A stretch of DNA of 64,000 bases from Callorhinchus milii (lineage: Eukaryota), in NCBI RefSeq assembly GCF_018977255.1, contig NW_024704742.1, positions 73,596,001-73,660,000 on the forward strand. Reading direction: 5' to 3'. Under the pieces are notes generated by a model. That model did not search any database, had not been told where the DNA came from, and was given only the letters and a program-made list of their open reading frames with translations. Of the stretch, positions 43,691 through 61,903 are shown one piece after another (position 1 is the stretch's first letter; every line of letters begins with the position of its first letter). Made by a program: the position numbers and the translations under genes.

Positions 43691-44407
43691 TAGACGTGCT
43701 CCAGAAATATAAACCTGCAGAATGTTATTTTTGCAAAGGAGACAATTTAGGAACACAAGTCCCTATTCTCCATTCTAACCAGCATTTTGCAGCCAGATAC
43801 CATGTGGTGAATTGCATACAGCACGTGAAGCAGATGAGGATTAAATGATATTGCTTCTGTAACTTCGCTGATGTGGATCTCCCTTCCATCATCAGCCCAT
43901 TCCCGAGTGGCCGCCTGCTGCCACCTCAATTTTTCTTCTCAGAGAACATGGGAATTCCACTATAAAAAGGTTCATTCTCCAGTTAATTGAAAGAGATTAT
44001 TGTAAAATAAATAAAAAATTCTCACGTGCAGTTTGAAAGCTTGTCTCAACTATCCTGCAAATGTTACTCAATGAATCAAAATTGCAGCATATGATCTCAT
44101 CACATTGACCAAAAAGGCAGTCAAACTCCAGTCAGTAGTTTTCACTAGTCAGGGAAAGGGGGGAGAATAGTAGTCTTTGAATTTTAACCTCTAATTGTAA
44201 GACTACAGTATTGAAAATCCACTCCAGAGCGTGGAATGCATGGCTGTACTTTACAGTCTCTAAACAAGAGATGTCAGTAGTGAGTGAGAATCACAACGGG
44301 GTTTACTCCAGGCCCCTGGAGTGACAAATTAATAAATCTTCACAAAGTACCATTTCAAGACTAAAGCAAATGATTACAATTAAAAAAGTAAAAAGTAAAA
44401 AAAAATA

Positions 44408-44705
44408 TTAATCCTTGCATTTGGTATAGCACCTTATTAGGTTGTTGATAGGTCTCAAAGCGCTTCACAGGATATACTGTAAAATGGATTGACTCTGTAT
44501 TTTGTGGGTGAAATACAGCAGCCAATTTGCACACAGCAATGTCCCACAAATAGCCATGGAGTGAGTGACCAATTTTATTTGGGGGACTGTTGGCAGGACA
44601 CCGGGAGAGAGAAACTTCCTTCTCGTTTCAATTTGTGCCATGGCATCTTTAACATCCACCTGAGCAGGCAGCCAGAACCTTGGTTTAACATCTCATCTGA
44701 AGGAC
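44408..44705 (-). mobile_element. SINE family B, 5'-truncated
   Basis: atccttgcatttggtatagcacc tail...gtgccatggcatctttaacatccacctgagcaggcag..tggtttaacatctcatctgaagg. Confidence 0.8.
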
Positions 44706-44722
44706 AGATGATTTAAAATGAT

Positions 44723-45089
44723 AAACAAAGAGAGCTGGCAAAACTCAGCAGGTCAGGCAGCATCTATGGAGAAAGGAAAGTGAGTCAACGTTTTGGGTTC
44801 CACGACCCTTCGTCAGAACTTGATGGCTTTTAAACATCGTTTCTGTGCACCTCTATTGATGCTTGAAAGTGACAATCAAGCTCAGCTCTCCAGAGATCAT
44901 GGTCAAGCTGTCCAAAGTTCTGGTCAGTGCTCTGATCAGGTTATACCCTGGCCATGTTCTGACGAAGGGTCGGGGACCTGAAACGTTGACTCACTTTCCT
45001 TTCTCCATAGATGCTGCCTGACCTGCTGAGTTTTCCCAGCTCTCTCTGTTTTTGTTTCAGATTTCCAGCATCTGCAGTATTTTGTGTTT
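44723..45089 (+). mobile_element. Penelope-like (pLTR-derived) fold-back insertion: short inverted arm 44723-44820, captured spacer 44821-44955, long arm 44956-45089
   Basis: Arms are reverse complements over ~95 bp. Perfect 14-bp direct repeats tgatttaaaatgat flank the element (44709-44722 and 45090-45103). Arms contain a CTGACGA..GAAACGTT motif. The Penelope assignment rests on my recollection of similar pLTR sequences and their minimal hammerheads. Confidence 0.8.
44956..44991 (+). ncRNA. Minimal type-I hammerhead ribozyme-like motif
   Basis: gtt-CTGACGA-a-GGGTC-ggg-GACCT-GAAACGTT-gac: conserved core, 5-bp stem II, palindromic ACGT in place of stem III, short stem I (a)gtt/gac(t). Confidence 0.6.
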
Positions 45090-45575
45090 TGATTTAAAAT
45101 GATTGTGTTCTCAATTACCTAGATTGTATTTTGATCAAATAATCTCCTTTAAACAGATATGTAAATGTACGTTTTGTTGTTGCAAATTTTGCTGCTTAAT
45201 CATGAATTTTGTAGTGCATTTTATAAATGGAATGAGCAGCTACAGGCTCTCTGGTGACTGAGTGCTGTTGGAAGCTGATGTCTGCCAGTTTTATTGTACT
45301 TCAGGGAAGGCTGCTGTCCCAGATCAGGTTGGCCAGTGAGCTGCGAGACGAGCGTATTACAGTAGCGATCAGCTGGTTTACACCAAACTTATTCTGTCAG
45401 CAACATGTCATTTTGTACAGAAAGTCCCTGACAGACGTAACTGAGTTGGCATTAAATTTATTGCATCATGCACTTGTTTTTCCAGCTTCACAAGCTGGGT
45501 GACACACAATGCTTCACACAATATAAAACCAAATGTGGCTTGTTAACATGACACTACATCAATCAACCTATCCTG

Positions 45576-45732
45576 CAGAACTCACTGAGTGGCTTATCAA
45601 CACTGTTTCTGTGCACCTCTATTGGTGCTTGAAAGTGACAATCAAGCTCAGCTCTCCAGAGGTCATGGTCAAGCTGTCCAAAGCTCTGGCAAGTGCTCTG
45701 ATCAGGCTGTACCCTGGTCATGTACAGTTCTG
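45576..45732 (+). repeat. Donor of the spacer captured at 44821-44955
   Basis: 45605-45722 matches 44839-44956 at 110/118 positions by manual alignment. Confidence 0.92.
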
Positions 45733-46060
45733 GTCACCATAACATACAGATGCTGACCACTCCTTAGGGCAGTTCAGAAAATAACAATTAAGTTAATCTC
45801 CAGTACAGTATTTGTAAGGATGAGCTATGAGGAATGACTGTGGCTTGAAAGGAAGGGATCTCAGAGGGGATCTTAATAGAGGTAAGTGAGATGTTAAATG
45901 AGATTAGGAAAGTAAACCCAGATATGACAAAGCTGCAGAACAAGAGGACACAGGTTCAGTTATGAAGAAGAGACACCAGCAACAAGTTCCCAGGAAGGCT
46001 GGTTGAGGCCAGGATGCTGAACTCACTTACGAAACAGTTTGGTGCTGTAATGGAAAGACC
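45640..46060 (+). mobile_element. Old CR1 relic
   Basis: SSPEVMVKLSKALASALIRLYPGHVQFWSP resembles CR1 (K)S.EV.L.LYKALVRPHLEYCVQFWSP; followed by gagctatgagga..agaggggatcttaatagaggt. Confidence 0.65.
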
Positions 46061-53849: not shown

Positions 53850-54066
53850 CTAAATGTTTCCTTTGTTTTTCTTTCTCCGCCCCCTTCTCTGCTTGTCCGT
53901 ATAATCTGCTTCCTTCCAACATCCCCCAGTTCTGAGTAATGGTCATAGACCTGCAATTTTAATTAAATTTCCTATCTCCATAGATGCTGCCTGACTTGCT
54001 GAGTGTTCCAAGAGACTTCTGTTTTTGTTTCAGATTTTCAGCATCTGAAGTATTTTGCTTTATTTT
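53850..54066 (+). mobile_element. Solo, decayed Penelope-like terminal repeat (same family as 44956-45089)
   Basis: ccagttctgag..ggtcatagacctg..tctccatagatgctgcctgacttgctgagtgttcc..ctgtttttgtttcagattttcagcatctgaagtattttg. Confidence 0.78.
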
Positions 54067-61683: not shown

Positions 61684-61903
61684 CAAAACATAAAATACTG
61701 CAAATGCTGGAAATCTGAAACAAAAACGGAAGTCGCTGGGAACACTCAGCGGGTCAGGCAGCATGTATGGAGAAAGGAAAGTGAGTCAACGTTTCGAGTC
61801 CACGACCCTTCTGACGAAGAAGGGCCGTGGACTCGAAACGTTGACTCACTTTCCTTTCTCCATAGATGCTGCCTGACCTGCTGAGTGTTCCCAGCGACTT
61901 TTG
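61684..61903 (-). mobile_element. Penelope-like fold-back insertion without spacer (long arm 61684-61811, 7-nt centre, short arm 61819-61903)
   Basis: Near-perfect palindrome of ~82 bp per arm. Flanking 12-bp direct repeats tcaaaatgtacc (61672-61683) and tcaaattgtacc (61904-61915) have one mismatch. Confidence 0.82.

Follow-up and report, generated by a model that had tools for sequence, protein, structure and literature searches.

A fold-back insertion in the genome of Callorhinchus milii, built from two inverted arms that we assign to the 3' end of a Penelope-like element (PLE), carries at its center a copy of host DNA taken from its own flank. The insertion lies in a stretch of 64,000 nucleotides (assembly GCF_018977255.1, contig NW_024704742.1, positions 73,596,001 to 73,660,000), referred to below as the window and numbered from its first letter. 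Local capture is not a peculiarity of this site, for own-flank donors were found at 14 of 21 fold-backs of the same family whose center is foreign to the element. The explanation that we favor, with a probability of roughly 0.7, is that such centers arise within one PLE integration event, in which both target strands would prime reverse transcription and microhomology-primed copying of the flank would bridge the ends of the two complementary DNAs (cDNAs).

Results

Architecture of the window insertion and its donor

The composite at 44709-45103 and the segment from which its center appears to have been copied comprise the following features.

44709-44722, no strand assigned: left copy of the target-site duplication (TSD), TGATTTAAAATGAT, an exact 14-bp direct repeat matching 45090-45103
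44723-44822, minus strand: short inverted arm, assigned to the PLE 3' end, arm positions 1 to about 96-100
44814-44820, plus strand: 7-nt microhomology CAGAACT, present at the short arm's inner end and again at the left donor edge (45576-45582)
44823-44955, plus strand: captured spacer, 133 bp, a same-orientation copy of the flank
44956-45089, plus strand: long arm, a complete 134-nt PLE 3' end by our assignment, including a minimal hammerhead motif and the terminal "tail"
45090-45103, no strand assigned: right copy of the TSD, TGATTTAAAATGAT, exact over 14 bp
45576-45732, plus strand: donor segment in the 3' flank, with CAGAACT at 45576-45582, the copied body at about 45583-45724 and CAGTTCTG at 45725-45732

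A single TSD pair encloses short arm, spacer and long arm. This agrees with an earlier reading of the bare letters (the original prediction), whose TSD, arms and spacer were all recovered at the same positions or within a few bases. Inverted-repeat pairs were found at 44723-44801/44973-45051 (79 nt, 94%) and at 44792-44822/44953-44983, and by BLAST the two arms are 93-94% identical over 97-100 nt. The short arm is without the last 35-40 nt of the PLE 3' end, the tail: its outer end falls at position 496 of the arm probe and that of the long arm at 535.

The spacer aligns in the same orientation with 45590-45721 at 91% identity (120 of 132 aligned bases identical), and self-comparison of the sequence returns the repeat pair 44824-44957/45590-45723, the donor starting 500 bp past the long arm. 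The likeness had previously been put at 110/118 in the core. When the spacer was searched against the entire 991-Mb assembly, three matches came back: the spacer, its local donor and, on another contig, an 82% match of 57 bp. For the putative CR1 relic that the original prediction placed in the donor, this one weak match is the sole counterpart elsewhere; with no other good match in the assembly, the claim that the spacer is non-element sequence from this locus stands. Homology between spacer and donor extends slightly leftward, to the shared CAGAACT, and the heptamer at 44814-44820 is the likely entry point of a template switch. On the donor, the copied interval is flanked by inverted copies of the arm terminus, and no arms adjoin it.

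Contigs from two related species are colinear with the window over 45117-45765, with 80-86 substitutions and 21-33 gaps in 649 bases, and the donor-containing block is about 87% identical in both. This colinearity argues that the donor is ancestral and the spacer the derived copy, and we read the donor as part of old single-copy DNA. The interior of the spacer is without contig cover in the two related-species runs, which supports no conclusion about an empty site. In two other samples of the same species, contigs cover 45065-46000 with at most three differences per contig.

Identity of the arms

A genome-wide search with an arm probe yielded at least 1857 first-look candidates, of which the best 40 were scored. 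The 39 other scored full-length copies are 96-98% identical to the window long arm over positions 1-134, and an inverted partner is present in 11 of the 40. In some copies the arm is preceded upstream by an untranslated region (UTR) of about 400 nt and, before that, by an open reading frame (ORF) end; one copy, L020, is 5'-truncated within the ORF end. Just upstream of the 3' UTR, the ORF fragment of L006 reads ...VYCIRCSQCGLLYIEET...RLGDRFAEH and those of L018 and L023 read ...LLYIGET.... Overall, the fragments read VYCIRCSQCGLLYI(G/E)ET...RLGDRFAEH, a GIY...YIG pattern with two cysteines between the motifs. This combination is described as typical of PLE endonucleases (Craig 2021, PMC8557442), and by motif reading a C-terminal PLE endonuclease motif of the GIY-YIG type is present in the ORF fragments.

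Pfam assigned no family to two decayed L006 ORF fragments. A 280-aa ORF fragment shares 54-56% identity with two shark proteins. P0002, one of the pair, passes the RVT_1 cut-off of 29.6 with 32.9 bits; in a third relative, P0003, the RVT_1 score is slightly too low (28.2 bits), and the GIY-YIG scores of the relatives P0003 (21.5 bits) and P0001 (18.9 bits) are sub-threshold (cut-off 22.6). The continuation into UTR and ORF, the GIY-YIG motif, the inverted pairs and the one-sided tail together bear out the proposal that the arms are PLE ends, and on these sequence features we file them as PLE 3' ends.

A hammerhead-like motif (CTGACGA, helix II, GAAACGTT) is present in the long arm. Young copies, read by eye, have CTGACGA-A-GGGTC-GTG-GACCC-GAAA-CG-TT, that is, CUGANGA, an extra base after position 9, a G10.1-C11.1 pair, GAAA and a palindromic 15.2-16.2 pair, with loop 3 absent. 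The same features characterize the minimal dimeric hammerhead of PLEs (Cervera and de la Pena 2014, PMC4209133), which the motif at the arm start fits by eye; cleavage by it is putative. Rfam hammerhead models gave no match in the window region, in either arm (E≤1), or in three young copies (E≤10). Matches to Rfam microRNA hairpins were rejected as spurious products of the fold-back. The core of the short arm is mutated, with AAAA in place of the required GAAA and one extra base in helix II, so that the description of the insertion as having two ribozyme-bearing arms has to be withdrawn: at the window only the long arm retains the core. The hairpin RNAs with a host-derived loop that were also envisaged would be speculative.

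Head-to-head pairs across the genome

Loci with two arm cores facing each other were collected by pattern, at most two mismatches being allowed; reversed-pattern controls gave 0-2 matches. The total came to about 405 head-to-head pairs, with core-to-core gaps of 0-29 nt at 307 loci, 30-89 nt at 51, 90-150 nt at 27 and 151-210 nt at 20. The head-to-head form is the usual habit of this PLE family. Most of the wide gaps reflect longer arms, which run on into the element's own upstream sequence. In about three quarters of the pairs (307 of about 405) the arms join at one common point of the element, give or take a few bases, immediately 5' of the hammerhead core; RNAs of full length reach much further upstream than this usual meeting point.

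Arm length follows a rule. One long and one short arm make up 32 of the 36 pairs available as sequence, the long arm reaching probe position 528-540 and the short one, 35-40 nt shorter, stopping at 470-508; the exceptions include one long-long pair (L069) and one or two short-short pairs. Among loci picked irrespective of their arm ends, the one-long-one-short arrangement was found in 26 of 30. Mixed pairs would amount to at most half if the start sites were chosen independently, and 26 of 30 is therefore far above independent choice. The composites are each enclosed by one TSD pair: exact runs of 10-18 bp were found in 7 loci, and most others have longer imperfect repeats, read by eye.

Some centers recur. 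Four fold-backs on one contig (C9:107838, 989128, 1135254 and 1449166) have one center, and identical or near-identical centers were seen at C30:2197529 and 2390065 and at C2:442032 and 452692, which suggests fold-backs lying inside larger segmental or tandem duplications. In L031 and L013, what has been inverted is the stretch of element that lies immediately upstream of the direct segment, the two overlapping by 11-22 nt, an arrangement like that of LINE-1 twin priming.

Local capture at other loci

Twenty-one loci, the window included, were chosen by eye as having a center of 36-165 nt that is not element sequence. They were drawn from three wider-gap surveys, in which 97 of 98 loci were listed, and each was fetched with about 1.5 kb per side; a local match was accepted at E≤1e-7 inside the 3.1-kb locus. 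Foreign-looking centers of about 30-45 nt, among them C1:54186548, C1:129546377, C1:108646390, C2:93422477, C18:703816, C5:57938675, C1:82397992 and C1:89039907, were left outside the count.

The 14 centers with an own-flank donor include seven of the nine long ones (118-165 nt):

Window: 91% identical to its donor, direct; the donor is the sole other good genome match
L037: 84% identical to its donor, direct; the local copy is the sole other genome match
L053: 93% identical over 70 nt, inverted; the local copy is the sole other genome match
L055: 91% identical to its donor, direct; the local copy is the best non-self genome match
L056: 90% identical to its donor, inverted; the local copy is the best non-self genome match
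L057: 86% identical to its donor, direct; the local copy is the best non-self genome match
L059: 93% identical to its donor, inverted; the local copy is the sole other genome match

The other seven (L060, L042, L065, L066, L067, L068 and L070) belong to the 12 mid-size centers (36-91 nt). The match of L042 is to a local satellite array; for L065 the local copy is the sole other genome match; for L066 the genome search returned the center alone and the local match comes from within-locus BLAST only. Five centers (window, L037, L053, L059 and L065) have no comparable match elsewhere in the genome.

Control windows from the flanks of the same loci had a comparable local paralogue in 52 of 947 cases (5.5%) when 125 nt long and a local paralogue in 168 of 2739 (6.1%) when 55 nt long, so that 14 of 21 is far above chance. 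The comparison of other spacers with their own flanks and with the genome, which the original prediction had proposed as a check, thus came out in its favor. Its idea that the family captures flanking DNA routinely went too far: local fills account for at least 14 of about 405 fold-backs, 307 of which have a core-to-core gap of at most 29 nt. Other centers consist of sequence from the element itself, of different repeats or of orphan DNA. Among 12 solo copies, comparison of the 130 nt upstream of the arm with the local flank gave no paralogue in eight and weak ones in three, and L027 lies among other repeats; these 12 solo 5' junctions show no sign of flank capture, many of the copies being without an obvious TSD and of uncertain boundaries.

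These comparisons bear on two other explanations. Tandem and inverted arrangements of PLEs are a recognized source of assembly problems (Craig 2021, PMC8557442), and no listed contig runs across the window fold-back, as one would expect if the arrangement were an assembly artefact. A collapse or mis-join would, however, yield identical copies, and between spacer and donor 12 of 132 positions are mismatched; moreover, the same architecture, each time with its own TSD, is present at 21 loci on 11 contigs. With local paralogues in only 5.5-6.1% of control windows, chance similarity fares no better, and we consider both artefact and chance extremely improbable.

We attach just as little weight to the notion that 44723-45089 is one mobile unit, such as a miniature inverted-repeat transposable element (MITE), a fold-back element or a propagated hairpin, with 45590-45721 as another fragment of the same unit. 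Terminal inverted repeats and a TSD would suit such a unit, and so would the few recurring centers, for example the one shared by the four C9 loci. Yet no further copy of the spacer turned up in 991 Mb, as against at least 1857 first-look candidates for the arm, and its confinement to a single locus in the genome search refutes this reading. The arms, in addition, look like the 3' terminus of an element whose ORF is reverse-transcriptase-like, the donor stands without arms beside it, and the center differs by locus, matching the flank of each. Classification as a MITE or fold-back DNA transposon was likewise rejected: the internal sequence that copies of such an element share was not found, each tested locus having its own center.

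Geometry and junctions of the fills

In the 14 local cases 248-973 bp separate the donor from the composite's outer end. Seven donors are beyond the long arm, six beyond the short arm and one is unclear; nine are direct and five inverted. A side bias, with donors always beyond the long arm, was considered after six cases and was removed by the later ones. No donor was nearer than 248 bp in flanks searched from 0 to about 1400 bp, which with 14 cases is a trend only.

Several donors are bounded by the arm-terminal CAGAAC/GTTCTG, and entry microhomology of 5-7 nt was found in five cases. The window has 7 nt (CAGAACT) at entry; L070 has CAGAAC (6 nt) at entry and 8 of the 9 bases of AGTTCTGAT at exit; L065 and L053 have 6 nt at the donor edge (AACTGA and AACTTA, respectively); and L057 has 5 nt at each donor end. 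A junction stutter in L037 doubles CAAAGTGGA, and L053 holds an extra partial arm piece of 46 nt, while other junctions have a few bases of filler without known source. The stutters and extra arm pieces point to several template switches within one event. Taken as a group, the fills have the properties of templated insertions, in which an insert is copied from nearby with microhomology at entry, exit or both (14 of 21 centers with a donor within 1 kb).

An RNA donor is one alternative. Reverse transcriptase (RT) is present by definition, and on reaching the end of its own RNA template it might have switched to a host transcript being made at the locus and then returned; some centers are pieces of other retroelements (L043 with its (TTG)n tail, L054 and L058) and are most simply seen as jumps to abundant RNAs. 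Such a source is hard to reconcile with donors on both sides of the insertion, nine direct and five inverted, and the confinement of all donors to 248-973 bp is tight for RNA from a transcription unit. None of the RNA runs listed contains the window sequence, a result that is uninformative. We regard an RNA donor as quite improbable.

Age of the fills

Taken together, the seven long local cases have 48/626 mismatches between arms (7.7%) and 65/760 between spacer and donor (8.6%). Since the divergence between spacer and donor is not below that between the arms, filling at or close to integration is favored, and the single TSD favors the same timing. The fill would then be about as old as the insertion. 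The original proposal that capture took place during a single integration is, on the strength of the one TSD pair and the equal divergences, the favored one.

These figures can be set against a scheme of later repair, in which a near-spacerless palindrome forms first and its center is broken afterwards, through hairpin or cruciform cleavage or replication stalling, to be mended by microhomology-mediated, synthesis-dependent copying of nearby DNA. A spacerless precursor would be a common state, given the 307 of about 405 pairs with a gap of at most 29 nt; microhomologies at the arm terminus would suit a central break equally; and donors on both sides in both orientations are the expectation for a symmetric break. 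Repairs scattered in time, however, predict a spacer-donor divergence clearly lower than that of the arms, and the observed 65/760 is not below 48/626. The stutters and the extra partial arms (L053, L055) further need an element template in the same event, which is simplest with cDNA or RNA still present, though the arms could also serve. All told, later repair seems unlikely to us.

Other features of the window

Two further insertions of the family were found in the window.

53929-54057, plus strand: older solo arm copy, 81% identical
61684-61903, no strand assigned: second head-to-head insertion, with abutting arms and no spacer

In the latter, the long arm occupies 61684-61811 on the minus strand and the short arm 61809 to about 61903 on the plus strand, within an imperfect 12-bp TSD (TCAAAATGTACC/TCAAATTGTACC). 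The left flank of the spacer-bearing insertion (44357-44700) is a very high-copy repeat with a summed contig depth of 1e5-1e6 in all four runs, related species included; there the PLE inserted at the edge of another repeat.

Discussion

A mechanism can be built around several observations: the architecture of the fold-backs with their single TSD, fills that repeatedly derive from local DNA, microhomologies, arm and fill divergences of equal size, and the one-long-one-short rule. In the integration pathway that we favor, the element endonuclease would cut both target strands with a stagger of 14 bp, and each exposed 3'-OH would prime reverse transcription of element RNA. Two convergent cDNAs would result, the long arm from an outer start site and the short arm from an inner one. 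Both free cDNA 3' ends would be identical (...CGTCAGAAC(T)-3'); being identical rather than complementary, they could not anneal to each other, and closing the gap would call for a template switch or repair synthesis. The usual template would be the partner cDNA, giving a spacerless palindrome or a patch of arm sequence, and alternative fills would come from short patches of the element itself or from the RNA of other retroelements. At the window, one cDNA end may have annealed through the 7-nt CAGAACT to the flank about 500 bp off, which would probably have been single-stranded after resection of the break. About 140 nt would have been copied, extension continuing until the new 3' end read ...(A)GTTCTG; the template would have been left near CAGTTCTG, with pairing to the other cDNA end. 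Fill-in would finally fix a 133-bp duplicate of the flank between the arms, within one TSD pair. Copying of the flank in trans, on the exposed strand of the other end, would yield a direct copy, and snap-back on the same strand an inverted one.

Biochemical data on a lizard PLE offer a precedent: the purified protein cleaves and extends both target strands, and reverse transcription begins at two positions within the RNA, spaced by one "tail" (Frangieh 2024, PMC11167929). Alternatively, the arms could stem from a single cDNA that snaps back and primes itself, a route put forward by Arkhipova (2013, PMC3846280), which would explain the strict long-short pairing and would involve the same chemistry at the center. 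The invading end, the role of resection, the copying polymerase (element RT or host repair) and the choice between dual priming and snap-back are points that we infer. At somewhat less than even odds, one could go further and envision the fills as a record of the second half of PLE integration, comprising a two-ended and probably resected break, paired tailed and untailed cDNAs and iterative microhomology-primed joining on any nearby single-stranded template, be it flank DNA from either side, the element's cDNA or RNA of other retroelements. The strict pairing of tailed with untailed arms would, in that scheme, speak for a coordinated event at both ends, perhaps involving a dimer, as opposed to two independent priming choices.

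Several points weigh against the single-event pathway. Copied tracts of 36-150 nt exceed the short templated insertions of polymerase theta repair. Dual-strand priming is known only in vitro and for the lizard element. At the right junction of the window the overlap is only 2 nt, the 8-nt CAGTTCTG lying 3 nt past the end of homology, and its use at the exit requires that a 5-nt indel be assumed. No contig among those listed spans the window fold-back, whose junctions are therefore without direct read support. The equality of the divergences is a soft test, as gene conversion can homogenize the arms of a palindrome, and microhomology at the arm terminus is equally expected if a finished palindrome broke later at its center. 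Moreover, five of the 21 foreign centers are non-local. Two long ones, L054 and L058, consist of high-copy repeat sequence that is matched as well or better at other sites; the center of L043 (L043:1514-1588, G000:C2:81994265-81994339) comes from a different repeat family, whose 3' end with its (TTG)n tail it represents, is 97-98% identical to its best-matching copies elsewhere and looks like a template jump onto the RNA of another retroelement; the 67-nt center of L061 (L061:1543-1609, G000:C2:17506142-17506208) has no other match in the assembly; and that of L063 is a patchwork with no local match. The local matches of L062 and L069 are weak (E about 1e-4).

How PLEs complete integration and form inverted or tandem ends with a one-sided tail has been called undefined (Craig 2021, PMC8557442; Frangieh 2024, PMC11167929). 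If our interpretation is correct, the fills are footprints, at the sequence level, of the closing step of this process. They would indicate that the free ends were the arm terminus CAGAAC and that these ends searched within about 1 kb, on both sides and both strands, with repeated template switching; the pairing of long with short arms in 26 of 30 cases, where half is expected, would belong to the same footprint. The family would seed small direct and inverted duplications of host DNA beside its insertions. These predictions can be tested in the existing in vitro system and in assays with repair-deficient cells. For annotation, the mechanism would explain small locus-specific duplications, direct or inverted, beside PLE fragments, which an annotator might otherwise mistake for new repeats, hairpin genes or errors of assembly.

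Parts of this picture are already in print, namely inverted PLE ends, the tail, TSDs, the capture of foreign DNA in a rotifer, and LINE-1 templated insertions and cDNA self-annealing. A search of full-text literature, exclusive of subscription journals and supplements, returned no description of PLE head-to-head centers recurrently filled with own-flank DNA from within 1 kb, nor of arm-terminus microhomology in PLE fills or of a quantitative one-long-one-short rule.

The closest relatives of the fold-backs are the pseudo-long terminal repeats (pseudo-LTRs or pLTRs) of endonuclease-containing PLEs, an inverted arrangement with a 30-40-bp tail at one end (Arkhipova 2013, PMC3846280; Craig 2021, PMC8557442). 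Like these units, the fold-backs have an inverted, 5'-truncated copy beside a direct one, a single TSD pair, a putative hammerhead motif in the repeat and one arm shorter by about 35-40 bp (32 of 36 pairs here). The junctions described in those accounts are palindromic or overlapping, and a center filled from the insertion's own flank is not among them. In a rotifer PLE, capture of "unrelated sequences between solo pLTRs" has been reported (Arkhipova 2013, PMC3846280). There, as here, foreign non-element DNA sits within PLE terminal repeats and one TSD. The rotifer case is read in that account as trans-mobilization or as unspecified host DNA, its description giving no local source, microhomology or distance, whereas in the present loci the source is the flank of the insertion itself, 248-973 bp away.

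Analogies can also be drawn with LINE-1, for which a preprint describes 5'-inverted insertions formed by twin priming, as well as templated insertions, resection and cDNA self-annealing at insertion sites (PMC11702581). The resemblance lies in the second strand priming a second reverse transcription, in the microhomology at junctions and in the templated insertions and local duplications. LINE-1 belongs to a different element class with a different endonuclease (GIY-YIG in PLEs), and the inverted and direct segments left by its twin priming are adjacent and essentially non-overlapping parts of one RNA. Twin priming of this type was rejected for the window insertion, both arms of which cover the same positions, 1 to about 100. 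That the two arms copy the same 3' end and have identical termini is likely the reason why, unlike LINE-1, this element would need a bridging template.

At the level of the junctions, the fills recall synthesis-dependent microhomology-mediated end joining and the templated extension of ends by polymerase theta in cis (snap-back) and in trans, in which a 3' end is primed on adjacent sequence by a few matching bases, copies that sequence, comes off and re-anneals, and in which direct or inverted templated inserts are accompanied by stutters (PMC2943611, PMC4912351). They differ from the products of polymerase theta joining in having tracts of 36-150 nt and donors hundreds of bases off, and in that the primed ends would be cDNAs.

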